From a virus, in IMG/VR virus record IMGVR_UViG_3300029720_000017: a stretch of DNA of 54,276 bases. One strand, written 5' to 3'. Below the pieces are notes generated by a model, which had not been told where the DNA came from, searched no databases, and was given only the letters and a program-made list of their open reading frames with translations. The position numbers and the translations under genes were made by a program. Below are positions 14,653 to 48,177 of this stretch, piece by piece (position 1 is the first letter of the stretch; the number at the start of each line of letters is the position of its first letter).

Positions 14653-15486
14653 TTATACCAGCCACGCAGCCACGTGAGAAAGCTCGTCTGAAACGGTCTT
14701 CTCGAGGACCTCGAGCCACTGTGAGGGGATGGCAGAGTAACCATATAGGGCACCGGCGAGACCACCAGCGAGAGCCGCTATCGTGTCAGCGTCGCCACCG
14801 TCGTTCACGGCACCGAAGATGGCCTCCCGGAAGTCTCTCGTGTTATTTACCCAATACAGGGCATTGTTCAGAGTATTTATAACATGACCAGTAGGTTCCA
14901 TGTGAACACAGGGAGGAATCGCCCGGTCATCCATCATGTTGTTCACTGCCCGATAATACTTTACGATAGCTTCATCGCACACATCATTGGTATGGGTGAG
15001 CTTGGACTGTTCCCGTGCCAGACTGAGGTCTTTGGCAAGGCAGGGCACCAGACACCGCATCAGGCCACCGTTACCATAGTCCTGACGGCCACGCTTGCGC
15101 TGACGTTCCATATTCCTAACACTCCAAATGTCCCATCTGTGTCCTCTGTTCCCGGAGATGGCTGCATGACAGGTACTGCCAACATCAATCGGACCATCGT
15201 CCAACCAGTTCTCAAAGTTCTTGGCAATCTGAGTCATTCGACCGCTGAAAGTCAGCCTGTCCATCATGCCTCTTGCCACACAGAGCATCATCTGTGTATC
15301 ATCAGTAACCATACCGATGTCAATATTCAGCCAGCCACCACCGATGATGTCAGTCACCTGACCATACTGCTTCTTGATGCCCTCAGCGGTCATGAACTCC
15401 GTCGTGGCACCCATAGCATCACCGATGGCAAACCCATACAGGGCACCCATTATCTTGTCAATTCTCTTATTCTCATTCGTGTTCAT
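14653..15486 (-). CDS. ADP-ribosylglycohydrolase (ARH/DraG family)
   Basis: Contains GALYGFAIGDAMGATTEF near the N-terminus and GGDADTIAALAGGLAGALYG near the C-terminus, both family hallmarks. Confidence 0.85.
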   Translation of the reverse strand: MNTNENKRIDKIMGALYGFAIGDAMGATTEFMTAEGIKKQYGQVTDIIGGGWLNIDIGMVTDDTQMMLCVARGMMDRLTFSGRMTQIAKNFENWLDDGPIDVGSTCHAAISGNRGHRWDIWSVRNMERQRKRGRQDYGNGGLMRCLVPCLAKDLSLAREQSKLTHTNDVCDEAIVKYYRAVNNMMDDRAIPPCVHMEPTGHVINTLNNALYWVNNTRDFREAIFGAVNDGGDADTIAALAGGLAGALYGYSAIPSQWLEVLEKTVSDELSHVAAWLV

Positions 15487-16029: not shown

Positions 16030-17634
16030 CTATTTTTGATTTTTGACCAAAATTTCCATAAACACACGAATTACAGAGTTTCTGTGACCATCGGACTCCT
16101 CAATCTTGTTTATACGCACCGTTGTACCGGCATTGAGTAACGTTTCACCCTCGCCTGTACCGAACTGAGAAATGGACATGATAGAGGACGCCTGTGTACC
16201 CTTGGGAGCATAGAAAACAATCTCGACATCCCCTCCAAACCCCTTATTCCAGTCAGAAGAGGTACTGGTAAATCCAGCATATTGGCCAACCTTGCCTTGA
16301 AACAGCTTGTTCAAAGACTTAACTGACATCCCTTCTAATATGCTCTTATTATCAAAAAAGTCTCCATCAAGAAAACCAGCCAAGTCTCCAAGGTCTGTAC
16401 CGCGACGCAGTATTAAATCCTTTTCCAAAGCAGCTTTCTTCAGTGCAGATTGACACCGCTGTATGTCACCAGCGTACCAATCACCATGCTTATTATCAGC
16501 AGCCTCTTTACCTCTCTTCGCAGCAGTACGCAGCCAACCATTCATCTCTTTATAGCTACTACCTGTGTATTCTCTCAAGGAAGCCTTTTCTGCCTCGGTA
16601 AATCTTTCAAAGGCCGACTCTTCCATTTCCAACATTCCCGACGTAGTTTGACGTTCAAACAGACTTATCCACTCCTTAGAGGAAGGAATTTTCTGTATGT
16701 TGGTACCGGACTGTACATTGTCCTTAACTTCGGAGGCGATACCGCCCATACCCTCAATCCACTTATCCAAAGACGGGTCAGCCTTACCTTCAACCCAGTC
16801 AGCCAACCGGTCTGCGATTTCAGTCATACTCTGCGGAATGTATGCCTCAAAGGTACACATGCCGTTAGGGTGGTCAAGAGGGAGACTATCTTTGGGAAAG
16901 TGTTTACCATCTCGCTCCATACATACTTCACAGGTACGATTGCCCCCCGCAGACAACCAGACGTAATCCTCAACGAAGGGATTGTTTTTGGTAGTTCGTA
17001 CAAAGGCTTGTTGATAGGCGTGAGACACCATTGTACGAGCCAACCGTTGAGCATTGTAGTCAACTCTCTTGGCCGCGCCGGGGTACACCTTAGACCAGTC
17101 CCAGTCTTTTCTTGCTTCAGGATTCAGGTACTTCTCCAAATCCTTGGCTATGTCATAGGCACTCTTATTCTCTGCGATACCTTGTGCTACAACTGCGTTT
17201 ATATTGTACTGAGTCTTCATGTGATTTTTCCACAGGGCACGGCTCAGGCTCCACTTCCCCTCGTAGAGCTGACCACTTGCTACCGACTTAACAATGTCAG
17301 CCGGAACAAAACTGTATGCACCTTTAATCCCAAGACCCAGTTTATCTACGAATTTACCATTGTCGTCTACCACGGCCTGAGCCGCTGACTTCATATTGCC
17401 CTCAATCTCGCCCTTGAGAGACATCTCTGCTTTCTTGAGCTCCTTCTCGAGCTCCTTCTGTAAGTTCTTCAAGTGTTCCTCGTACAGAGGGGCAGAGGGT
17501 GTCTTAGGCAGCGTTTTGGCCTTTTTAGCAACGGATTTCGCAGCATTCTTATAGATGTCTACGATGTGCTTCTGCTGCTCTTTTGTAAGCTTTACTCTCT
17601 CCAGCTCAGCTGTATTCAGGTTAAACGTTGCCAT
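16030..17634 (-). CDS. MuF/SPP1 gp7-like head morphogenesis protein fused to a C3-like ADP-ribosyltransferase domain
   Basis: MuF core: AQRLARTMV...NRTCEVCMERDGKHF...HPNGMC. The C-terminal domain has YTGSSYKEMNGWLR, LRRGT (R), FTSTS (STS) and GEGETLL (ExE). Confidence 0.8.
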   Translation of the reverse strand: MATFNLNTAELERVKLTKEQQKHIVDIYKNAAKSVAKKAKTLPKTPSAPLYEEHLKNLQKELEKELKKAEMSLKGEIEGNMKSAAQAVVDDNGKFVDKLGLGIKGAYSFVPADIVKSVASGQLYEGKWSLSRALWKNHMKTQYNINAVVAQGIAENKSAYDIAKDLEKYLNPEARKDWDWSKVYPGAAKRVDYNAQRLARTMVSHAYQQAFVRTTKNNPFVEDYVWLSAGGNRTCEVCMERDGKHFPKDSLPLDHPNGMCTFEAYIPQSMTEIADRLADWVEGKADPSLDKWIEGMGGIASEVKDNVQSGTNIQKIPSSKEWISLFERQTTSGMLEMEESAFERFTEAEKASLREYTGSSYKEMNGWLRTAAKRGKEAADNKHGDWYAGDIQRCQSALKKAALEKDLILRRGTDLGDLAGFLDGDFFDNKSILEGMSVKSLNKLFQGKVGQYAGFTSTSSDWNKGFGGDVEIVFYAPKGTQASSIMSISQFGTGEGETLLNAGTTVRINKIEESDGHRNSVIRVFMEILVKNQK

Positions 17635-22624: not shown

Positions 22625-23299
22625 TTACAGGCCAGCCCGATACTTGTCGATTCTGACCTTCATTTCGCTTTCCTGATGCACATAAGGGATACCTCCAACC
22701 CGCTGACGGATGTCATCGTCAATGACACCATACAGAATCAGCTGACTGGGCTTGAGTCGCTTGAGCATCTCGCTGAATCCCCGATTGAACAGCATCCTCG
22801 CATTGGAATTTTGCATGCAGCCTACCGTGGATACACAGATACAGGAACCCTCAGGCATACCATCGAAGCAGTATTCAAAAGACTCTTCGTCGCTCCACTG
22901 AGCAGAGGGTACAACCCGAATGCCCAGAGAATTCATGTAAGAAGCCAACCACATATTTCTGTAGTAGTTCCAGATACGCATGGCACGAGGCATTGTCGTG
23001 TACTGGCTGAGGTCAGGCTGGATAATACCCTTGTACTGACCGAGGATGCCAGCATAGAAGTCCGGATTGTCCCAAACCCTCTCAATATACTGGTCAGGCA
23101 GGTAGAAATGAACCAGCTCGTCCTCTCTATCTACCATGTTTTCGGGCTTGGTACAGTAGTTAAACCCGATGAGGTGCTGCTTGTCCAGCTTCTTGAACTT
23201 CACCCCCGGAATTTTAGGTACATCATACCGTCCAACCAACTCCGGAGAGAATTTCTTTGTCTTCATAAAGTGTAGGAAGTCCTTTTCGCCAATAACCAT
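22625..23299 (-). CDS. DUF4417 domain protein
   Basis: LVHFY..D...ERVW..PD...PDLSQYTTMP...IWNYYRNMWLASY...GIRVVPSAQWSDEESFEYCFDGMP matches my recollection of DUF4417. Confidence 0.65.
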   Translation of the reverse strand: MVIGEKDFLHFMKTKKFSPELVGRYDVPKIPGVKFKKLDKQHLIGFNYCTKPENMVDREDELVHFYLPDQYIERVWDNPDFYAGILGQYKGIIQPDLSQYTTMPRAMRIWNYYRNMWLASYMNSLGIRVVPSAQWSDEESFEYCFDGMPEGSCICVSTVGCMQNSNARMLFNRGFSEMLKRLKPSQLILYGVIDDDIRQRVGGIPYVHQESEMKVRIDKYRAGL

Positions 23300-27861: not shown

Positions 27862-28037
27862 GTGAATCCACCCTGCTGAGATACGGGTCGGTGCTGAAGA
27901 GTAACAACTTTACCACCTCCCGAGGGTTCTACACCATTCGCATCATCAGCTACGAGGGTCAGTTGTATTTCCACAAGATGAAAGATGGAAATCTGGTTGA
28001 GCTTATCAACCTTACAGAAATGGAGAAACGAGTATGA
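27849..28037 (+). CDS. hypothetical small protein
   Basis: Start is GTG at 27849 or 27858 and is not resolved. Confidence 0.4.
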
Positions 28038-28279
28038 CGACTATAAACATTGGGTACAGCAACTTCGTCAATGCCGACCATGTAGTTGCTATCGTCAGTC
28101 CGGAGTCAGCGCCTATCAAGCGCATGGTGCAGGAGGCTAAAGACTCTGGCCGCTGTGTAGACGCCACCTACGGACACCGCACCAGAGCCGTGCTGGTCAT
28201 GGACAATGGAGCTATCGTCCTGTCAGCGGTCCAACCTGCAACCATCATCAATCGCAACGGTCAGAAGGAGGACAAGTGA
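28034..28279 (+). CDS. remA: RemA/DUF370-family regulator homologue
   Basis: [65 protein letters not shown] is near-collinear with B. subtilis RemA as I recall it ([38 protein letters not shown]). Confidence 0.85.
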
Positions 28280-30188: not shown

Positions 30189-30374
30189 ATGAAGACAATG
30201 GTTGTATTCAGTAGAGAAGATTTTGAGGGCTTATCAGCTCTGCTTCAGAACGCTGTACATGATGCTGAAGTCCTTGAAAAGAACAACTCAAGTTACCTTA
30301 CCAGTAGACTGATAGACACTCTGCATAACGTACAACAATACTTGAAGGAGGACAACGACAATGGAGATGACTAA
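30189..30374 (+). CDS. hypothetical small protein
   Basis: GGAGG RBS, 61 aa. Confidence 0.5.
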   Translation: MKTMVVFSREDFEGLSALLQNAVHDAEVLEKNNSSYLTSRLIDTLHNVQQYLKEDNDNGDD

Positions 30375-30882
30375 GCGGATTGTAGAAATCATGAAGGTTC
30401 TTAGAAAACTCGGTATGCACGAAAATCTAATCGGGTTCCTCTATACTGTTACCGCCGTGGATGCCATACTCAATAGTGACCATGTGCTTCGGACCATGGA
30501 AATCTATGAAGCGGTAGAAGAGGCAGTTGGAATCCCTGCCAGCCGAGTGGAACGAAGCATTCGTCACTCGATAAAGACCCTATATGCAACCTCAAAGACA
30601 GTTCGGAATTCCCTAATCTTGGGGACGTCCTGTTGTTCATACAAGGACATCCCTTCCAATTCAACCTTCCTGTCTTCTGTAGCCAACTACATCCGTATGC
30701 AGGAGTATGAGGACACTAACAGAGTCACCTACTATTCCCGGCCTATAAACGCTGATGGAGACCCTGTATTTGCTCCTGACCTTGCGGAAAGGAAGTACGT
30801 AGCTGGATGGGGTGGTGGAGCGGAAACTGGTAGATACTGCCCCAATTTAACGGAGGTGATTACCCGTGATATAGAAGCCTGA
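30361..30882 (+). CDS. Spo0A C-terminal (DNA-binding) domain protein with no receiver domain
   Basis: LGMHENLIGFLYTVTAVDAIL...IYEAVEEAVGIPASRVERSIRHSIKTLY parallels Spo0A-C (HIKGYLYLREAI...ASRVERAIRHAIEVAW). It starts directly at that domain and has a ~60-aa unrelated C-terminal tail. Confidence 0.8.
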   Translation: MEMTKRIVEIMKVLRKLGMHENLIGFLYTVTAVDAILNSDHVLRTMEIYEAVEEAVGIPASRVERSIRHSIKTLYATSKTVRNSLILGTSCCSYKDIPSNSTFLSSVANYIRMQEYEDTNRVTYYSRPINADGDPVFAPDLAERKYVAGWGGGAETGRYCPNLTEVITRDIEA

Positions 30883-30958: not shown

Positions 30959-30999
30959 GGAGATTTTTGAAAATTTTTCAAGAAATTTTGTAAAAGGAC

Positions 31000-31028
31000 T
31001 TTACTTTTGTAAAAGATGGAGTTATAAT
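31000..31028 (+). promoter_or_regulatory. promoter P2 (TTTACT-N17-TATAAT)
   Basis: TTTACT at 31000 and TATAAT at 31023. Its ~80-bp context is near-identical to that of P5. Confidence 0.75.
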
Positions 31029-31073
31029 TGTATCATAAATCAAGAATAACACCACTTCAAGGAGGACTATAAA

Positions 31074-32383: not shown

Positions 32384-32456
32384 AATGAGACAGGAATTAT
32401 GAGGAAATTCACCCAAATTCTTGTCTCATTTCCCGGATTTTCCGGCTTTCTTTTTC
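32384..32456 (+). terminator. possible terminator region after the DUF2786 gene
   Basis: Stem aatgagaca/tgtctcatt with a long loop, then ccgg-atttt-ccgg and ctttcttttt. Confidence 0.4.
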
Positions 32457-32475
32457 TGGCCGGAGGAGTTATAAT
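32447..32475 (+). promoter_or_regulatory. promoter P3 (TTTCTT-N17-TATAAT), weaker -35
   Basis: ggaggagTTATAAT is shared with P1. The -35 matches in 4 of 6 positions. Confidence 0.55.
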
Positions 32476-32505
32476 TACCTACAGATTGAGCGAGGAGGAT
32501 GAATA

Positions 32506-33102
32506 ATGGATTTTAACTTTGCTGTAAAGAACAGGAGTGAAGAGGAGCGTATACAGCTGCTTCAGAGCACCCTTGTGATGAGCGGAATCAGTCCTAAGAG
32601 CTTTCCTATGGATTGGCTTGCCAGTACTGACTACTTCCGTGCCCCGGCCTCTAAGAAGTTTCATGCAGCATACCCCGGAGGCCTGTATGAGCATAGTCTG
32701 AACGTCACCTATAAACTGCTCCAATTCACTGAAGCTGGTCTGTGTTCTCCGTGGGGACGGCCGGAAAGTCCTATCATTGTAGGTATGCTGCATGACGCAA
32801 CCAAGATTGGACGGTATGCAGAATTCAAAGAGGTCAACCCCGATACTGGAGAGATGGAGATTTTCTACAAGGACAATCCCGACTACGTAAACCTCGGCGG
32901 ACATGGAAATGACTCTGTTCTCAAGCTCAAGCAGGTCATGAGGCTCACGGAGGAAGAGGAGCTGTGTATCAGGTATCACATGGGTGCTTATGAGACCGAT
33001 GATTGGGACGGCTTTGACAAGGCCATCCGCAAGTTCCCGAACGTACTATTCACCCATACCGCTGACATGTATGCCTCCAAGTGCATGGAGGTGACTCCGT
33101 GA
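32506..33102 (+). CDS. HD-domain phosphohydrolase
   Basis: Contains KKFHAAYPGGLYEHSLNV and GMLHDATKIG (H...HD...D pattern). Confidence 0.7.
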   Translation: MDFNFAVKNRSEEERIQLLQSTLVMSGISPKSFPMDWLASTDYFRAPASKKFHAAYPGGLYEHSLNVTYKLLQFTEAGLCSPWGRPESPIIVGMLHDATKIGRYAEFKEVNPDTGEMEIFYKDNPDYVNLGGHGNDSVLKLKQVMRLTEEEELCIRYHMGAYETDDWDGFDKAIRKFPNVLFTHTADMYASKCMEVTP

Positions 33103-34133
33103 GGAACAAGCCGGGGGACATTCCCTACCTCGGCGTTCGCAAGGAGCTGGTACTGACGGCTGAGCCTACCTTAGATGAGGAAGTCCTGCTACACCTGTAT
33201 CGGTTCATCACTCGGCGGTATAAAGTCCATATCAAGAAGGACATCCAAGGTCTACCAGCTCCTTGGACAAAAGACCCGGTCATACAGAACTATCGGTTTA
33301 CCAATGTCAGACGGGAGCATGACAAGGAAACTCGTTGGCTGATACAAAATATCGTCAACAATCCAAACGTTACCTATGAGGACAAGCTCCTCAACTGCGT
33401 GCTTTTCCGACTCTACAATAAACATGAAACATCAGAGCTGCTATCTCAACCTATTCCCTTTACTCATATTATAGAGAAGAACGGTGTATGGGATCCGGAT
33501 TCCTATCGAGCACTCTTTGCCGCACAGGATTGCATATACCCTGAGCGAGTTTTCTTTACTGGAGTGTTCATGGTGAGTGGGTTGCTTCGTATCGCTAACC
33601 AGTACACTCCCGAAGGAACGGACGAAGAGGACACCAGAATGCGACCTCTGTGGCTTCTGAGACATCTGGTAGACCTGCACTTACCCGACCGGATAAAACG
33701 CTGCAAGACGGCTCGAGAGGTCTGCAGAGTCCTTTCTCGAATTGATGGTATTGGGGTGTTCCTTGGGTACCAGATGTTCGTGGATATGACCTACATACCG
33801 GAGTTCCCTTTCAGTGAGAACGAGTACGTAGTGGCTGGCCGTGGTTGTCAAAGGGGCTGCGAGTATCTGTTTGAAGACTCCGATGACATGACTTACGAAG
33901 AGTGTATCTTTTGGCTGCGAGACCATCTTGAGGACATCTTTGCCGAGCATACAAAGGGAAAATTTAGCTGCAAGACCCTGTTCCATGACCTCCCTCCTTA
34001 TGACCAGCAGTTCAATGTCATGAGCATAGAGAATTGTCTGTGCGAACTCAGTAAATACACCAGAGTTCTACGTAAAGAGGGAAGACCAAGAAAACGTTAT
34101 CAAGGAGGACAAGATGAAAAAGACAAGAAATGA
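33099..34133 (+). CDS. candidate DNA base-hypermodification enzyme (aGPT-pyrophosphorylase-like)
   Basis: GTG at 33099 lies 5 nt after GGAGGTG with a GTGA overlap. The motif PWTKDPVIQNYRFTNVRREHDKETRW matches my recollection of the alpha-glutamyl/putrescinyl-thymine pyrophosphorylase family signature. This assignment needs an HMM check. Confidence 0.5.
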   Translation: MRNKPGDIPYLGVRKELVLTAEPTLDEEVLLHLYRFITRRYKVHIKKDIQGLPAPWTKDPVIQNYRFTNVRREHDKETRWLIQNIVNNPNVTYEDKLLNCVLFRLYNKHETSELLSQPIPFTHIIEKNGVWDPDSYRALFAAQDCIYPERVFFTGVFMVSGLLRIANQYTPEGTDEEDTRMRPLWLLRHLVDLHLPDRIKRCKTAREVCRVLSRIDGIGVFLGYQMFVDMTYIPEFPFSENEYVVAGRGCQRGCEYLFEDSDDMTYEECIFWLRDHLEDIFAEHTKGKFSCKTLFHDLPPYDQQFNVMSIENCLCELSKYTRVLRKEGRPRKRYQGGQDEKDKK

Positions 34134-34716
34134 GCTGCGACGAGACCGGATTTATGACATCATCATAACCATTGTGATGGTACTGGTGCTCATTGCCGTG
34201 GGTATCCAAATCGGTGCTTGGATTGAAAATGCCAAGTATGAGCCCAAGGAGAGCAAACAGGTCTACTACGAAGCCAGTGATTGTGCCTTTGAGATGCCTG
34301 AAGACCCACTGGAGACTTATCTCATTGAACGAGCAATCATGGCCAAGCCTACTCCCGCTGTAATGGGTTATGACTATGATTATGTGTGTCGTGTTGTTAT
34401 GGCTGAGACCGGGGGCGAGTACAATGAAGACCTTACACTGGCAGTATGTCAGGCTATTGCCAATGCCGCTGTAGAAAACAACTGGACTCCCGAGGAAGTC
34501 TGTATCAAGTACAAGTACACCAGACCCCACGAGTATACCAGTGACTTCATTCAAAACATCTGTGACCGAGTGTTTATTCAGGGCGAAGTATATGAGGCCT
34601 CTGGAAATGCTCAGGTTTTCTACAATCCCAGTTATGGTCACAGCAGCTACCATGAGAGTCAGAGCTTTGTGTGTGAAATTGGTGGTGTTCGGTTCTTTGA
34701 GAGGGTGAGTGTATGA
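34114..34716 (+). CDS. membrane-anchored cell-wall hydrolase, SleB-like (Hydrolase_2)
   Basis: N-terminal TM segment IYDIIITIVMVLVLIAVGIQIGAW. The catalytic-domain motifs VCRVVMAETGGE, LAVCQAIANA, VFYNP and IGGVRFF parallel SleB C-terminal motifs. Confidence 0.65.
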   Translation: MKKTRNELRRDRIYDIIITIVMVLVLIAVGIQIGAWIENAKYEPKESKQVYYEASDCAFEMPEDPLETYLIERAIMAKPTPAVMGYDYDYVCRVVMAETGGEYNEDLTLAVCQAIANAAVENNWTPEEVCIKYKYTRPHEYTSDFIQNICDRVFIQGEVYEASGNAQVFYNPSYGHSSYHESQSFVCEIGGVRFFERVSV

Positions 34717-35531
34717 TACCTGTATTCGTACCTTCCTACAAGCGTCCCAAGGCTAAATTCCTTGTACGCGCCATGGAGCAGGAATTTCCTCTGTATGTCT
34801 TTGTGCGTAAAGAGGAGAGGGATGCCTACGCATGGATAAAGGAGCGCCCTGATACTACTCTGGTATTGCTGTCCAACGTTTCTAACATTGGTGAGACTCG
34901 CAGAGCCATGTTCCGCTATGCTGTACACCATCGGATACCTAAAATCATCATGGTGGACGATGACGTTACCCGTTTAGACTTGTCTATGGTTGACCCGGTA
35001 TCCGGAAGGGTAAAGGCTTCCGGCAATGTGACTGGTCATACTGAGAGCTGGAACAAGGTCATTACTCGGTTTGAAAATCTCTGGGGTAAACAGGCCATGT
35101 TCGGTGCCTCTTATAGACCCTTCAGTTGGTCTATGTCTGAGGAGGAAATTCTCAAGCTGAGTAGAGGTCAGCTTCAGCAGGTCGTTGGTATCAATGTCAA
35201 ACAGATTTACAAGGCTGGCCTGAATTATCAGAGCAATACAGTCGTTGGAAATGAAGACCTGTTCCTCCAGCTGGAGTGCTATCAGCAGGGATTGGAGTGT
35301 GTCAAAACCAATGCTATTCAGTATGACTGTCCCGCTATGGGTGCCGGAGAAGGAGGCTGTAATGCTTCGGAGCTCGGTTCTCTTGCAGAAAAGCAGAGAG
35401 TCAGGGTAGAGGCATTTCTCAAGGCATGTAATAATTCTCCCGCTGTACGAGTGGCTACTACCAGAAGCGGGATTGAGAGTATCAAGTTCAACTGGAAAGA
35501 GATAAACAAGATGATGGAGGGAGTACTATGA
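34713..35531 (+). CDS. GT-A-like glycosyltransferase (candidate DNA glycosyltransferase)
   Basis: MIPVFVPSYKRP at the N-terminus and IIMVDDDV (DxD-type). The genomic context is nucleotide-metabolism genes. Confidence 0.5.
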   Translation: MIPVFVPSYKRPKAKFLVRAMEQEFPLYVFVRKEERDAYAWIKERPDTTLVLLSNVSNIGETRRAMFRYAVHHRIPKIIMVDDDVTRLDLSMVDPVSGRVKASGNVTGHTESWNKVITRFENLWGKQAMFGASYRPFSWSMSEEEILKLSRGQLQQVVGINVKQIYKAGLNYQSNTVVGNEDLFLQLECYQQGLECVKTNAIQYDCPAMGAGEGGCNASELGSLAEKQRVRVEAFLKACNNSPAVRVATTRSGIESIKFNWKEINKMMEGVL

Positions 35532-36004
35532 ATACAAACAGTTGGTTGGATATGGCGGAGATGTACGCTCAGAAGAAGAGCGGTTGTAACAAAGTCGCCG
35601 TAGGTTGTGCCATTGTTAGTCCTGACCGGAGGCAGCTTTTGACTCTGGGAGCAAATCAGGCCATGCCTGACCTGTGCAAGTCGGAGCGTGGCTGTCTGCG
35701 GATGGAGCTCTATGGTGAAGACAGTAAAGCACACCGGAACTCTGGTGATTGCAGAGCCATTCACAGTGAGATTGATGCCATCTCTGGCGCGGCTGAGTGG
35801 GGTGTGTCTCTGCGTGGGGCTATTGCCTTTGTTACTCGGTATCCTTGCGAAAGTTGTGCCAAGGCACTGATTCGTGCCGGTATCAAGGAAGTCTACTATG
35901 GCGGGACTGCTACTGTGAGCGAATATACCAGATACCTGTTCGAGATGTACAAAGTCCGATGCTATCATATTACAGGCTGGCGTGAAGACCTGTCTGACCG
36001 ATAA
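35528..36004 (+). CDS. dCMP deaminase (ComEB/T4 cd-like)
   Basis: HSEIDAI (HxE) and YPCESCAKALIRAGIKEVYY (PCxxC) zinc-deaminase motifs. Confidence 0.8.
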   Translation: MNTNSWLDMAEMYAQKKSGCNKVAVGCAIVSPDRRQLLTLGANQAMPDLCKSERGCLRMELYGEDSKAHRNSGDCRAIHSEIDAISGAAEWGVSLRGAIAFVTRYPCESCAKALIRAGIKEVYYGGTATVSEYTRYLFEMYKVRCYHITGWREDLSDR

Positions 36005-36017
36005 GGAGGAGAATACC

Positions 36018-36521
36018 ATGGCAGATGTAAAGCTAAATCGAGACCAATTGAATGTGCTGGCGAAAGCAAGAATGACCTATGGTGATACTGCACAGATTCT
36101 GGTATCCAATGAGGAGCTCTGTGAGCTGGCTGCGGTATGTGCCAAGTTCCCTCGCTATGAGTCCCCTAACAAGGCTCGAGAAGAGCTCTATGACAAGGCT
36201 GTGGATGAGGTGGCTGACGTCATCATCGTCCTTGACCACATCATCAACATCTTTGGTGTAAAGGACACTGACCTGAGTGCCCGCATCAATGGCAAGATTG
36301 CTCGTTTGACAAACTGGTTGAACAAATCCACCTCTATGGAGCAGACTACCATAGATAGAAACGTCCCTCAGGATGACCCGGAGCAATTATCTCTCTTTGA
36401 GACGATGGGTTGTCCCTGTGTGGGGTGTAGCTACTACAAGAATTTCCTGGAGCTGAAGCTCGGTGGGAAGTGCTATGAGTGCCGAGGAACTGGCAAAAAC
36501 TTCAATCCAAGGGAGGACTAA
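36018..36521 (+). CDS. MazG-like nucleoside triphosphate pyrophosphohydrolase
   Basis: ATG follows AAGGAGGAG. EELCELAA...DEVADVIIVLDHI is the all-alpha MazG EExxE...D pattern. A C-terminal CxxC...CxxC tail is appended. Confidence 0.65.
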   Translation: MADVKLNRDQLNVLAKARMTYGDTAQILVSNEELCELAAVCAKFPRYESPNKAREELYDKAVDEVADVIIVLDHIINIFGVKDTDLSARINGKIARLTNWLNKSTSMEQTTIDRNVPQDDPEQLSLFETMGCPCVGCSYYKNFLELKLGGKCYECRGTGKNFNPRED

Positions 36522-41031: not shown

Positions 41032-41121
41032 AATAGTGCGAAAACTGTAGAAAAACAAAGACCAGGGATGAGAGATAAAGCCAGTCAGCAAAATTTCCTC
41101 AAAAATACTCAATTTTGGGGC

Positions 41122-41150
41122 TTTACTTTTTCAATCCGCCATGTTATAAT
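41122..41150 (+). promoter_or_regulatory. promoter P4 (TTTACT-N17-TATAAT)
   Basis: TTTACT at 41122 and TATAAT at 41145. Confidence 0.7.
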
Positions 41151-44563: not shown

Positions 44564-44905
44564 ATGGACAAGATTACAATCCATTCCGAGCTTTGCACAG
44601 AGATGCATGCCCTGTACAAGCACAAAAATGCTGACTACGGAGATAGCTTTGCTCGGCTCCGAAAGCGTTACCCGAACTTTGTGTGTATGCGGCTGTTTGA
44701 CAAGCTCAACCGTCTGGACACCATCATCCAGCCGGGGTATGAGTGTAAGGTGTCTGACGAGAAAATTGAGGACACCCTGATGGATATCGCCAACTATGCT
44801 ATCATGGAGCTGACTGAGCGTAGAGCTGAACGCCCTTTCGCTGAAGAAGTGATGAGACGAGCTCGTAATAGCGAGCCTGTGGTCATCAAGAACACCGATA
44901 TCTGA
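44564..44905 (+). CDS. DUF1599 / nucleotide-modification-associated domain 1 protein
   Basis: KHKNADYGDSF....MRLFDKLNRL is the DUF1599 pattern. It lies directly upstream of the ThyA homologue. Confidence 0.65.
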   Translation: MDKITIHSELCTEMHALYKHKNADYGDSFARLRKRYPNFVCMRLFDKLNRLDTIIQPGYECKVSDEKIEDTLMDIANYAIMELTERRAERPFAEEVMRRARNSEPVVIKNTDI

Positions 44906-44918
44906 TAGGAGGAAAATC

Positions 44919-45635
44919 ATGGCTGTAACTGTATTCAATGCAAAAACCGTAAACGAGGCTTGGGAACAGGCTTTCGAGGCTCTGAAGGCTCAGGCCAATG
45001 AGGGCTTCAATGATACCTCTCGCGATGGAGGGGTTGTGGGTGAGATTACCGATGCAGTCTTCTGCATTGAAGACCCCACTCGCAACATCGTGACCAGTCC
45101 CATTCGCAAGATGCCTATGCGCTATGCCGTGGGCGAGCTTGCATGGTATCTATCTGGCTCCAACAAGGCTTCCGACATCGGTCGCTTTGCTAAGAAGTGG
45201 CTGGAAATTTCTGACGACGGCGAGACCAACAACTCCGCGTATGGTTATCGTATTTTCACAAAGTTCGGCTTTGACCAGTGGAAGCACGTCAAGAACATGC
45301 TGCAGAAAGACCCCAACTCCCGTCAGGCAGTTATCCACATCAAGGACGCTGATAACAAACTTACCAAGGATACCCCATGCACGGTCTATCTGCAGTTCTT
45401 CATTCGGAATGGCAAGCTGAATCTCTCTGTTCACATGCGCTCCAATGACATCTGGATGGGTGTACCCTATGACATGTTCAGTTTCTGTTTCCTGCAGATG
45501 AAGATGGCTATGGAGCTGGGGGTTGAGATTGGTGAGTATCATCATTATGCCGGTTCTTTGCACATGTATGCTCGGGACTGGGAAGCCGCCAAGAAGAACA
45601 TGGGTGAGGTCTGCTGTACTGAGCTGAAGAGGTGA
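44919..45635 (+). CDS. thymidylate-synthase-fold pyrimidine C5 transferase, probably dCMP-specific (hydroxymethylase or methylase)
   Basis: PCTVYLQFFIRNGKLNLSVHMRSNDIWMGVPYDMFSF aligns residue by residue with E. coli ThyA [37 protein letters not shown]. An Asp replaces the specificity-determining Asn. Confidence 0.75.
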   Translation: MAVTVFNAKTVNEAWEQAFEALKAQANEGFNDTSRDGGVVGEITDAVFCIEDPTRNIVTSPIRKMPMRYAVGELAWYLSGSNKASDIGRFAKKWLEISDDGETNNSAYGYRIFTKFGFDQWKHVKNMLQKDPNSRQAVIHIKDADNKLTKDTPCTVYLQFFIRNGKLNLSVHMRSNDIWMGVPYDMFSFCFLQMKMAMELGVEIGEYHHYAGSLHMYARDWEAAKKNMGEVCCTELKR

Positions 45636-46753: not shown

Positions 46754-48155
46754 CTTCATACTCAAGACCAAGCCTTGGGCACACCAGCTCAAGGCTCTTG
46801 AGTATCTATACCCTCGGGACGCTGCTGCTCTGTATACCAAACCGGGCAGCGGCAAAACCAAAATCATGATTGACCTCATTGTCAACCGAGGGTTCAAGCG
46901 TGTATTAGTAGTAGCTCCTAAAAAGCCCTGTGAAGTGTGGAAGCCTCAGATACAGCTACACTCTGACATCCCGCCGGAAAACATACATGAATTGTATTCT
47001 CTCAGCGGGAAGAAGAAGGCTGAGCTGCTAAAGACCTTCAAGACTGTACAACCGGGCGAGGGCTGCTCCATCTTCATCTGTAACTATGATTCCGTCTGGC
47101 AAAAGCCTGTTGATAAAGTCTGGTTCTACAAGAAGCTGGGAATTGACTGCGTTATCTGCGATGAGAGTCACCGCATCAAGTCTCCATCAAGCAAGTGTTC
47201 CTGTTTCCTTGCTCGTCTCGGAAAGGTTGTTCCGCATCGGTATCTACTGACCGGTACACCGCTGGCTGAAAATCCTATGGATGTGTATGCTCAGTACAGA
47301 TTCCTTGACCGGTCTATCTATGGTACCAACTACCGAGCATTCTGTGAGCAGTACCAGAATATTGACATCAACCTGAGTGCTCGTGTTGGCTTTCCAATTC
47401 TGGACAAGAAGCAGCCTTATAAAAACCTTGATGACCTCAAGGAGAAGATGTTCAGTTGCGCTTTCTATATGAACTCTACGGTCAAGCTCCCAAAAACGAC
47501 CAGAATGGTTGTCAAGATACCCATGCCCGCCGGATTGGAGTACTTGTACAAGGAGCTTGATAAAGAAGGTGCTCTGGAGATGGAAGAGGGCTTCTTGACC
47601 GTGAACAATGCTCTGTCCATGGTCATACGGAAACAGCAGGTAACAAGTGGGTATCTCCCTCTGGAACGAGATGATGGTACAACCGAGCTCAAGCGTATCA
47701 GTACATATAGGCGTACATTTTTATACAAGTTCCTCAAGCAGTTACCGGAGTCAGAGCCTGTTGTCATCTTTGCGAAGTTCCAAAAAGACCTGTATTCTAT
47801 CCGCAAGGTCGCAGAACGTCTTGGTTGCGGGTATTCAGAGGTGTCTGGCCGGGAAAATACCCTCAGGGACTGGAAGTCTGGAAAGACCCGAGTTCTGGGT
47901 GTACAGTATACAGCAGGGTCAGAGAGTATTGACCTCACTCGTGCTCATCTCTGTATATTCTACACCCTTGACCACTCTTTGGGGAAGTATGAGCAAGCGC
48001 GGGCACGAGTACATAGACCGGGTCAAGAGAGCCCATGCATTTACTACCACTTCACCGCTGTGATGTCTTCCGGTCGGACGGTTGACCAAGACATTGTACA
48101 ATGTTGGAAAGACAAGAAAAATTACATAGACCTTATCATGAGAGGAGCCTTGTAA
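46725..48155 (+). CDS. SNF2-family helicase
   Basis: Contains PWAHQLKALEYL, GSGKT, DESHRIK and a C-terminal helicase domain. The start is ATG 46725 or GTG 46731; the latter has better RBS spacing. Confidence 0.85.
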   Translation: MVVSLGSSSNFILKTKPWAHQLKALEYLYPRDAAALYTKPGSGKTKIMIDLIVNRGFKRVLVVAPKKPCEVWKPQIQLHSDIPPENIHELYSLSGKKKAELLKTFKTVQPGEGCSIFICNYDSVWQKPVDKVWFYKKLGIDCVICDESHRIKSPSSKCSCFLARLGKVVPHRYLLTGTPLAENPMDVYAQYRFLDRSIYGTNYRAFCEQYQNIDINLSARVGFPILDKKQPYKNLDDLKEKMFSCAFYMNSTVKLPKTTRMVVKIPMPAGLEYLYKELDKEGALEMEEGFLTVNNALSMVIRKQQVTSGYLPLERDDGTTELKRISTYRRTFLYKFLKQLPESEPVVIFAKFQKDLYSIRKVAERLGCGYSEVSGRENTLRDWKSGKTRVLGVQYTAGSESIDLTRAHLCIFYTLDHSLGKYEQARARVHRPGQESPCIYYHFTAVMSSGRTVDQDIVQCWKDKKNYIDLIMRGAL

Positions 48156-48177
48156 ATACAGGGTTCCTCTTTATTTT
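48141..48177 (+). terminator. intrinsic terminator overlapping the SNF2 stop codon
   Basis: Stem agaggagcc/gggttcctct (9 bp, one G-U pair) followed by ttatttt. Confidence 0.6.

Follow-up and report, generated by a model that had tools for sequence, protein, structure and literature searches.

The stretch of DNA analysed here, referred to below as the window, is IMG/VR virus record IMGVR_UViG_3300029720_000017 (54,276 nucleotides), which represents a siphovirus of about 54 kb from human-gut metagenomes whose remaining genes make up a structural, lysis and replication set. Six genes at positions 32506-36521, together with a thymidylate synthase-like (ThyA) homologue about 11 kb downstream of them, probably form a cytosine-replacement system resembling that of the T-even phages, a reading that we hold with modest conviction. 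Under it, 5-hydroxymethylcytosine (5hmC) would be made first and would then receive a sugar, and a protein of Pfam family PF18723 would likely act on a 5-hydroxymethyl-pyrimidine. An earlier annotation of this DNA, referred to here as the original prediction, had singled out the six genes as an operon combining nucleotide-pool enzymes with candidate DNA base-hypermodification enzymes. The genes that matter to the argument are as follows (aa, amino acids).

32506-33102, + strand: HD-superfamily metal-dependent phosphohydrolase, 198 aa (PHROG 28876, E-value 4.5e-26; Pfam HD, E-value 0.012)
33099-34133, + strand: PF18723 protein (HMUDK_hel, formerly aGPT-Pplase clade 1), 344 aa, with a GTG start that overlaps the stop of the HD gene
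34114-34716, + strand: membrane-anchored protein, 200 aa, with one N-terminal hydrophobic helix (PHROG 18750, unknown function, E-value 1.4e-9)
34713-35531, + strand: TAGT/JGT-like GT-A DNA glycosyltransferase, 272 aa (Pfam PF20691, E-value 1.2e-11; PHROG 842)
35528-36004, + strand: dCMP deaminase, 158 aa (Pfam PF00383, E-value 1.2e-15; PHROG 174, E-value 4.3e-29)
36018-36521, + strand: MazG-like all-alpha nucleoside triphosphate (NTP) pyrophosphatase, 167 aa, candidate dCTPase/dUTPase (PHROG 2245, E-value 7.8e-10)
44564-44905, + strand: DUF1599 protein (nucleotide modification associated domain 1, Nmad1; Pfam PF07659, E-value 6.4e-10), directly 5' of the ThyA homologue
44919-45635, + strand: predicted ThyA-fold dCMP 5-hydroxymethylase, 238 aa (Pfam Thymidylat_synt, E-value 9.2e-28)

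Specificity of the ThyA homologue

The best-supported step of the proposed pathway is the conversion of dCMP to 5-hydroxymethyl-dCMP, which the ThyA homologue would catalyse, since this step rests on active-site residues. The best PDB matches of the protein are the entries for the CMP 5-hydroxymethylase MilA (E-value 4e-32), and alignment to the thymidylate synthase (TS) structure 6auj gives L143D and N177D, with C146 and D169 kept. The combination of L143D, a retained D169 and N177D is shared by 28 relatives of the protein. According to Lee et al. 2026 (PMC13326640), N177D sets cytosine specificity, L143D/E accompanies hydroxymethyl products, and D169N marks the 5-hydroxy-dCMP synthases; by these rules the window protein and its 28 relatives carry the signature of a dCMP hydroxymethylase and not that of an enzyme producing 5-hydroxycytosine (5hoC). 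A dUMP-specific hydroxymethylase would have Asn at the position equivalent to E. coli TS 177, and Asp is found there, which upholds the view in the original prediction that the protein looks dCMP-specific. The key residues were read from the PDB alignments, and typing of the wider family used approximate sequences of E. coli ThyA and T4 gp42 as rulers. The adjoining DUF1599 gene is conserved in 21 related loci.

Identity of the PF18723 protein

The 33099-34133 product matches Pfam PF18723 with an E-value of 2.8e-66 and 224 bits (cut-off 25) over profile positions 2-278 of 281, and annotators label the family 'aGPT-Pplase clade 1'. The original prediction had compared this protein, on the strength of the segment PWTKDPVIQNYRFTNVRREHDKETRW, with the aGPT-pyrophosphorylases used in thymidine hypermodification. 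The segment is present as quoted, and placement in a base-modification superfamily holds. The implied transferase role fares less well, as the proven transfer of amino acids or polyamines belongs to clade 2 (PF18724, ADDT), namely M6 gp51, PaMx11 gp46 and 15599 Pplase2 (PMC11472151, PMC13458397). The PF18724 hidden Markov model (HMM) gave no match to the window protein even at an E-value of 10, compared with 1.4e-46 for M6 gp51 in the same library. The PF18723 member of M6 is a different protein, gp55, which is 24% identical to the window protein (E-value 3e-13).

An AlphaFold2 model of the protein, built from an alignment of 24 homologues, reached a pLDDT of 88. The protein shares an all-alpha fold with the C-terminal part of SP10 gp186 and with PhiW-14 gp72. 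Its top viral structural matches in BFVD (Foldseek) are PF18723 members from SP10, phiRSL1, a Microbacterium phage and PhiW-14, including SP10 gp186 (F8WQ30; E-value 3.5e-13, TMq 0.75) and PhiW-14 gp72 (C9DG43; E-value 3.9e-7), and ADDT-domain proteins follow behind them as weaker matches. The top structural match in the PDB is 8z2n, the PaMx11 5-PmdU (5-phosphomethyl-deoxyuridine) glycinyltransferase, and the next is a helix-hairpin-helix (HhH) 8-oxoguanine glycosylase; both matches are weak (E-values 0.15 and 0.6, TM 0.26-0.43). A PDB sequence search with the PF18723 profile returned nothing usable.

A profile alignment with M6 gp51, which is also weak (hhalign probability 2%), sets E311-N312-C313-L314-C315 of the window protein on E-T-V-L-C247 and F-S-E240-N on D-F-D175-N. 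In PaMx11 gp46 (PUGT), the orthologue of gp51, Cys247 serves as the catalytic nucleophile and Asp175 touches the flipped base (PMC11472151); in the 15599 enzyme, the essential metal is bound by a Glu-Thr pair (PMC13458397). An alignment of 69 diverse PF18723 sequences has 30 positions with at least 90% conservation, and the window protein keeps 28 of them, including N312, C315, E316, D229 and the R71-R72-E73-x-D75 block; the two deviations are A156V and P248R. We take the PF18723 protein to be a paralogue of the amino-acid:DNA transferases (AADT), which flip the base and depend on a Cys and a metal, and we infer that it is an active, DNA-directed enzyme. ViI gp160 also belongs to the family, as does SP10 gp186 in its C-terminal half, which is fused to the kinase (PMC5889632 Table 3). 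Reconstitution in M6 lysate ran the first transfer step without the clade 1 protein gp55, and the same study did not establish a requirement for ViI gp160 (PMC8989533). No reaction is assigned to clade 1 in PMC5889632 or PMC8989533. The PF18723 members of the window's phage family end in a conserved, AT-hook-like GRPRK(K/R)Y tail (window 34098-34133), which M6 gp55 lacks.

The missing kinase and its optional cassette

The original prediction had missed the P-loop kinase that normally primes thymidine hypermodification, and its absence was confirmed over the whole window: a combination of tblastn, iterated HMM searches, a Walker A scan and a Pfam census of the remaining open reading frames (ORFs) found no 5-hydroxymethyl-pyrimidine DNA kinase in these 54 kb. 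A kinase hidden elsewhere in the window was rejected, as tblastn with 11 diverse kinases gave a best E-value of 0.15, and the Walker A scan returned just AAA_24, primase and terminase-region proteins. Among the remaining ORFs of the window, the Pfam census likewise brought up no kinase, methyltransferase, TET or second glycosyltransferase.

For a census of sister phages, IMG/VR loci found through the ThyA protein were cross-referenced with those found through a PF18723 alignment, which gave 19 genomes with both regions visible, or 20 with the window. An alignment-based scan was required, as a scan of IMG/VR with a single PF18723 sequence returned 2 loci. PF18723, the dCMP deaminase, the MazG-like gene and an Asp-type ThyA homologue are present in 20 of 20 genomes. 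The kinase and the glycosyltransferase occur together in 12 genomes, the kinase alone in 3 and the glycosyltransferase alone in 5 (the window and loci L018 and L026-28), and no genome lacks both. The exact ThyA protein of the window was found on 7 independent contigs with an identical, kinase-less local gene order, one of them from a human-gut metagenome, and the closest homologues lie on metagenomic contigs of 45-55 kb.

In the 15 sister genomes with a kinase, a two-gene cassette lies between DUF669 and DUF1599/ThyA and consists of a gene that we call x320, then the kinase (L006 8130-9661, L008 7553-9143, L009 7541-9143, L005 16985-18506). The kinase is a clear member of PF18748, the 5-hydroxymethyl-deoxyuridine (5-hmdU) DNA kinase family (E-values 7e-24 and 9e-25). 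The x320 product, of about 320 aa, has no Pfam match; its best sub-threshold HMM matches are PF18723 proteins, of which it is a distant paralogue within the PF18723/AADT group (hhalign E-value 0.004, with three shared motifs, including ies.lC.frK on lENc.CElSK). At the cassette site the window has a 58-nt spacer alone. PF18723 is independent of the cassette and lies beside the nucleotide-pool genes in every genome, and the five kinase-less genomes that retain it fall into three distinct branches. The window phage thus does lack the kinase, which is part of an optional cassette.

The position of the x320-kinase pair beside an Asp-type ThyA gene suggests that kinase-primed hypermodification may extend to cytosine in the sister phages. 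A 5hmC DNA kinase has been put forward as a proposal by Burke 2021 (PMC8256090), and our search of the literature on 5hmC DNA kinases or 5-PmdC, the cytosine counterpart of 5-PmdU, did not find a characterised example. The DUF669-ThyA site is a variable modification island in relatives of the window, where radical-SAM/SPASM, FkbM-type methyltransferase, dUTPase-like and Tmk-like genes occur (L028 8645-9619, L016 8508-9515, L023 2657-3307, L009 9146-9571, L005 19359-19847, L016 9520-9996). In some relatives the Tmk-like gene lies directly 5' of ThyA, in the place that DUF1599 occupies in the window.

Proposed pathway

We propose that, before replication, dCTP and dUTP are broken down to monophosphates by the MazG-like pyrophosphatase, perhaps together with the HD hydrolase, as the roles of their families suggest. 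By analogy with the T-even phages, the deaminase would turn part of the dCMP into dUMP and so feed thymidylate synthesis, and the ThyA-fold enzyme would make 5-hydroxymethyl-dCMP from dCMP. Since no phage deoxynucleoside monophosphate (dNMP) kinase was found, host or unrecognised kinases would have to supply 5-hydroxymethyl-dCTP to the phage PolA. After replication, the TAGT/JGT-like GT-A enzyme would transfer a sugar from a nucleoside diphosphate (NDP)-sugar to 5hmC in DNA, an activity that has been shown for its GT-A family (bioRxiv 2023.12.21.572611) and that the active-site motifs of the protein support. PF18723 would most likely have as its target a 5-hydroxymethyl-pyrimidine in DNA, or something derived from one, that is flipped out of the helix, and it would work without a priming kinase, and the kinase and AADT-like transferase would form a separate, optional cassette beside ThyA in most sister phages.

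The association of PF18723 with hydroxymethylases of either specificity, its independence of both decoration modules, the Cys motif, the fusion in SP10 and the dispensability of M6 gp55 in the first in vitro transfer step all fit an enzyme that would process 5-hydroxymethyl-pyrimidines in DNA by attack at C6. In PhiW-14 and SP10, some of the 5-hydroxymethyluracil (5hmU) becomes thymine once it is in the polymer, through an enzyme that is not known to have been assigned. The clade 1 paralogue could carry out such a conversion, but it would need an activated substrate that the window phage apparently cannot make.

Several points weigh against the T-even-like reading. No P-loop dNMP kinase for 5-hydroxymethyl-dCMP was found in the window, and T-even phages need a phage dNMP kinase. 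Sister contigs were seen over about 10 kb on each side of the two anchor genes, and a kinase elsewhere is therefore possible in the kinase-less relatives, the window excepted. The resemblance of PF18723 to solved AADT structures is weak (TM 0.37-0.43, E-value 0.15, hhalign probability 2%). Moreover, the AADT metal site serves a phosphate leaving group, and without a kinase PF18723 has no evident substrate. The MazG-like and HD assignments come from PHROGs and motifs, and the identity of the base, the identity of the sugar and the reaction of PF18723 are all inferred.

Alternative explanations

A more far-reaching form of the T-even-like reading, which we consider possible but would not expect, is that PF18723 is an active, kinase-independent enzyme whose conserved Cys opens the C5 substituent of 5hmC or sugar-5hmC, so that a group is installed or removed. 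The result would be an undescribed cytosine modification that also occurs in the cultured actinophages with the same gene set, and the PF18748 kinase and x320 of the sister phages would act on 5hmC. If this were true, thymidine hypermodification would have its cytosine counterpart in this phage family, whose decoration cassettes could be swapped.

It is rather unlikely, in our view, that PF18723 is instead a non-enzymatic accessory that recognises DNA or 5-hydroxymethyl-pyrimidines and presents the base to whichever decorating enzyme the phage has, be it a kinase or a glycosyltransferase. Such a role is implied by the Pfam name 'kinase helical domain', and the C-terminal fusion of clade 1 to the kinase in SP10 gp186 (a structural match of the window protein), the dispensability of gp55 in the first transfer step of the M6 lysate reconstitution, the occurrence of the family with either decoration module and the AT-hook-like GRPRK tail are in keeping with it. 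However, the Cys that aligns with the AADT catalytic Cys and its polar neighbours are at least 90% conserved in the 69 members, which is unusual for a pure binding module, and phage GT-A enzymes function in E. coli without PF18723 (bioRxiv 2023.12.21.572611). In addition, SP10 has no clade 2 paralogue (PMC5889632), so that the clade 1 domain is the sole candidate transferase there.

The modified base could also be a uracil derivative, with 5-hydroxymethyl-dCMP deaminated to 5-hydroxymethyl-dUMP, the resulting 5hmU in DNA glycosylated in the manner of base J, and PF18723 acting on 5hmU; this we regard as improbable. The other phages known to have PF18723 and the PF18748 kinase are 5hmU phages, dCMP deaminases tolerate 5-substituted dCMP, and in nearly all relatives a deaminase gene follows PF18723 within about 2 kb. 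The cellular enzyme most closely related to these GT-A enzymes, JGT, has 5hmU as its substrate (bioRxiv 2023.12.21.572611). But 5hmU phages, M6 and all of the distant loci linked to PF18723 among them, use N177-type dUMP ThyA homologues, and a detour through 5-hydroxymethyl-dCMP is without precedent. The T-even phages likewise have a dCMP deaminase, for dTMP supply, and Microbacterium phage Morrigan pairs a D-type ThyA homologue with PF18723.

We give still less credence to the idea that PF18723 is a functionless relic of an ancestor with the kinase/AADT-like cassette and that the pathway is simply 5hmC plus a sugar. The closest sister genomes, L006 and L056, do have the cassette exactly at the position of the 58-nt spacer, and A156V and P248R are changes at otherwise conserved positions; yet the ORF is intact, translationally coupled and faithful at 28 of the 30 conserved positions. 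PF18723 is also retained in the three kinase-less branches (five genomes) and on the 7 independent contigs, and in unrelated cultured phages it occurs with no PF18748 detected among the tested neighbours.

Finally, it is highly improbable that the ThyA homologue acts like the enzymes of RB69 (gp48) and DLP3, which are flavin-dependent 5-hydroxy-dCMP synthases, with the sugar ether-linked directly to 5hoC, for although L143D/E and N177D are shared with those enzymes (PMC13326640) and a glycosyltransferase is present, the diagnostic D169N is absent, with Asp in the window protein and all 28 relatives.

Relation to known modification systems

The T4 system consists of the gp56 dCTPase, the gp42 dCMP hydroxymethylase, the cd deaminase, the gp1 dNMP kinase and the alpha- and beta-glucosyltransferases. 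The window resembles the T-even 5hmC pathway in its ThyA-fold enzyme with a dCMP hydroxymethylase signature, its all-alpha NTP pyrophosphatase and dCMP deaminase and, as its genes would suggest, the post-replicative transfer of sugar onto the hydroxymethyl group. It differs in that the glycosyltransferase is of the GT-A TAGT/JGT type and not of the T4 type, in the lack of a detected dNMP kinase, in the additional HD hydrolase, DUF1599 and PF18723 genes, and in a siphovirus virion with a probable gut Firmicute host.

With the thymidine hypermodification systems of M6, ViI, PhiW-14, SP10, PaMx11 and SH-Ab 15599, the window shares a clade 1 paralogue, a ThyA-fold hydroxymethylase, a dCMP deaminase and an HD hydrolase, and its sister phages share a PF18748 kinase with an AADT-like partner. 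Those systems combine a dUMP hydroxymethylase, the kinase 5-HMUDK and AADT/Pplase2, whereas the window has neither kinase nor AADT, its hydroxymethylase is of the dCMP type, and a glycosyltransferase stands where they have an amino-acid transferase. The HD protein was considered as a counterpart of the YfbR-like 5'-nucleotidase of M6, and this was rejected because the two have no sequence similarity.

The kinase-less combination recurs elsewhere. Morrigan carries PF18723, an Asp-type ThyA homologue, a TAGT gene, an annotated thymidylate kinase and a MazG-type gene, and Brevibacterium phage LuckyBarnes carries PF18723, an Asn-type ThyA homologue and two TAGT genes; PF18748 was not found among the tested neighbours in either phage. 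Pelagiphages have partner genes for TS and aG/PT-PPlase1, sometimes with a 5'-deoxynucleotidase and a glucosyltransferase and without a kinase (PMC9599517). The window thus shares with the HTVC023P-type pelagiphages, Morrigan and LuckyBarnes a set of PF18723, a ThyA homologue, one or more TAGT-type glycosyltransferases and a nucleotide hydrolase, with no kinase found among the tested neighbours. Unlike the pelagiphage and actinophage sets, in which the two genes adjoin, the window has its ThyA gene 11 kb from PF18723. When the ThyA homologues were typed (pelagiphages left out), those of distant loci L092-L110 and LuckyBarnes proved to be N177-type (uracil), and those of the window and Morrigan were Asp-type (cytosine). 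In the distant IMG/VR loci, the constant core combines PF18723 with a YfbR-like HD protein and a ThyA homologue of the Asn (uracil) type; where flanks were seen, a TAGT gene or an x320-kinase pair lies nearby, rarely both.

The glycosyltransferase family and its active-site motifs also link the window to the GT-A (JGT-like) pathways of metaviromes (Burke 2021, PMC8256090; Pyle 2023/2024), and many such contigs pair the GT-A gene with a ThyS homologue instead of a methyltransferase and TET, a subclass into which the window fits. Unlike the window, the tested examples made 5hmC through a C5-methyltransferase and TET, and the tested sets had no PF18723. GT-A plus a ThyS homologue is itself a catalogued route to glycosylated pyrimidines (bioRxiv 2023.12.21.572611). 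The claim in the original prediction that the gene combination matches no known pathway is therefore not upheld: the occurrence of the kinase-less set in cultured actinophages and pelagiphages makes it a variant of a recognised, chemically uncharacterised module and not a unique pathway. The suggestion that the set specifies an undescribed DNA modification may still prove right, but the data do not require one.

The core of the pathway is of an already known kind, in which 5hmC is made before replication and glycosylated after it. The variant features are the GT-A glycosyltransferase, the tie of a clade 1 Pplase to a cytosine-type hydroxymethylase and the natural absence of the kinase. PF18723 accompanies pyrimidine hydroxymethylases widely, in Ackermannviridae, M6-like phages, pelagiphages, actinophages and these gut phages, and the window is a natural minimal case, with PF18723, a predicted dCMP hydroxymethylase and a glycosyltransferase but without the kinase and transferase of the classic systems. 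Such a minimal gene set makes the function of PF18723 directly testable, whether through expression in another host or in cultured phages that share the set. In the phage family as a whole, the kinase/AADT-like cassette and the glycosyltransferase behave as exchangeable modules on a constant core, and kinase-primed hypermodification may reach cytosine. The resistance of abundant human-gut phages to restriction and CRISPR depends on modifications of this kind.

Other genes of the block

The original prediction had named an HD phosphohydrolase, a GT-A-like glycosyltransferase, a dCMP deaminase and a MazG-like NTP pyrophosphatase, and all four identifications are supported. In the HD protein, H53, H63, H96-D97, H158 and D187 are conserved in 29 relatives. 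The glycosyltransferase scores 45.4 bits against PF20691 (cut-off 27.5), and its R11, D82-D83-D84 and E181-D182, conserved in 32 homologues, fit the R...DDD...ED(Y/F) active-site motifs defined in bioRxiv 2023.12.21.572611; TET/5mYOX and C5-methyltransferase neighbours were sought and none occurs in the window. The HSE.DA and PCE.CA motifs of the deaminase (HxE and PCxxC) are conserved in 48 homologues. The MazG-like protein has no Pfam or PDB match, and its EEL.ELA ... DE.ADV motif (EExxE...ExxD) is conserved in 45 homologues. Its gene most likely starts at the ATG at 36018, as called in a 98%-identical relative, and not at the GTG at 35982. The protein ends in a Cys-rich, zinc-ribbon-like tail (CPCVGC...CYEC; window 36420-36521) that is not conserved across the 45 homologues.

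The membrane-anchored protein had been described as a SleB-like hydrolase. The hydrophobic helix stands (Kyte-Doolittle 19-residue maximum of 2.87 at residues 16-34), but the likeness to SleB is unconfirmed: searches of Pfam, NCBIfam and the PDB gave no match, and BLASTP against an approximate CwlJ sequence gave an E-value of 0.71. A V..VV..E..GE..AV.Q.I motif is suggestive of SleB/CwlJ at the level of motif resemblance, and the protein may hold a SleB/CwlJ-like domain. It is found in just 10 related loci, at varying positions. PDB sequence searches with the membrane-anchored, MazG-like, HD and TAGT proteins returned nothing usable, and NCBIfam added nothing for the unknown genes.

Operon structure and flanking regions

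The six ORFs lie on the + strand where the original prediction had placed them, apart from the revised MazG-like start. The tight coupling that it described is borne out, with successive junctions of -4, -20, -4, -4 and +13 nt and a GGAGG-type ribosome site upstream of each of the six starts. It had also proposed a terminator-like region and a promoter ahead of the block, and both have a counterpart in the 147-nt spacer 5' of the first gene.

32433-32455, + strand: terminator-like hairpin CCGGATTTTCCGG with a T-rich tail, ending the upstream DUF2786/DUF7168 gene (pattern scan and reading of the sequence)
32465-32476, + strand: promoter-like extended -10 motif GGAGTTATAAT(T), over-represented in the window

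The hairpin has a 5-bp G+C stem followed by a T-run and is weak when taken alone, as 5 such sites were observed in the region against a shuffle expectation of 5.0. The motif GGAGTTATAAT, which occupies 32465-32475 within the spacer, occurs 6 times in the window (14624, 15998 on the - strand, 24786, 31018, 32465 and 48228) against 0.61 expected, a number reached in 0 of 100 shuffles. This enrichment makes a promoter for the block plausible. The 31-nt context of the block's copy is repeated at 30999-31029.

Contrary to what had been claimed, the block is not self-contained. The primase gene starts 3 nt past the MazG-like stop, and the next hairpin-plus-promoter pair follows polA at about 41.1 kb, so that the six genes appear as the leading part of a long early/replication unit. 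The + strand genes form a long array that is divided by the pairs at 32433-32476 and 41097-41150, and there is a strong terminator at 48140-48171.

Between the window and L003 (9408-13407), which is otherwise among its closest relatives, the genes from HD to MazG (window 32506-36521) are 58-74% identical, and the flanking DUF2786, primase and polA genes are 93-96% identical. The low identity of the block against that of its flanks suggests that the modification block may be exchanged as a cassette between relatives. A megablast search of the operon against 50,697 phage records gave zero matches.

Host and other genes of the genome

A 53.6-kb relative of the window was binned with a Lachnospiraceae metagenome-assembled genome (MAG). 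The window itself encodes a protein with a Spo0A C-terminal DNA-binding domain (30361-30882; E-value 2.4e-17) and a RemA-like protein (28034-28276; E-value 2.3e-32), which are homologues of Firmicute sporulation and biofilm regulators. Together with the Lachnospiraceae link, these proteins make a Firmicute host likely.

The structural module includes, on the - strand, a Mu F-like head protein fused to an ADP-ribosyltransferase exoenzyme domain (16030-17631; E-value 1.9e-26) and a separate ADP-ribosylglycohydrolase (14653-15483; E-value 8.9e-50), which could represent an injected toxin with its reversing enzyme. A DUF4417 protein (22625-23296, - strand; E-value 3.3e-49) adjoins the gp3-like small terminase, and in relative L001 a small radical-SAM-like gene lies in the same neighbourhood. 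In L003 (16217-18563), an inserted HNH endonuclease gene divides the gene for the family A DNA polymerase into two ORFs.

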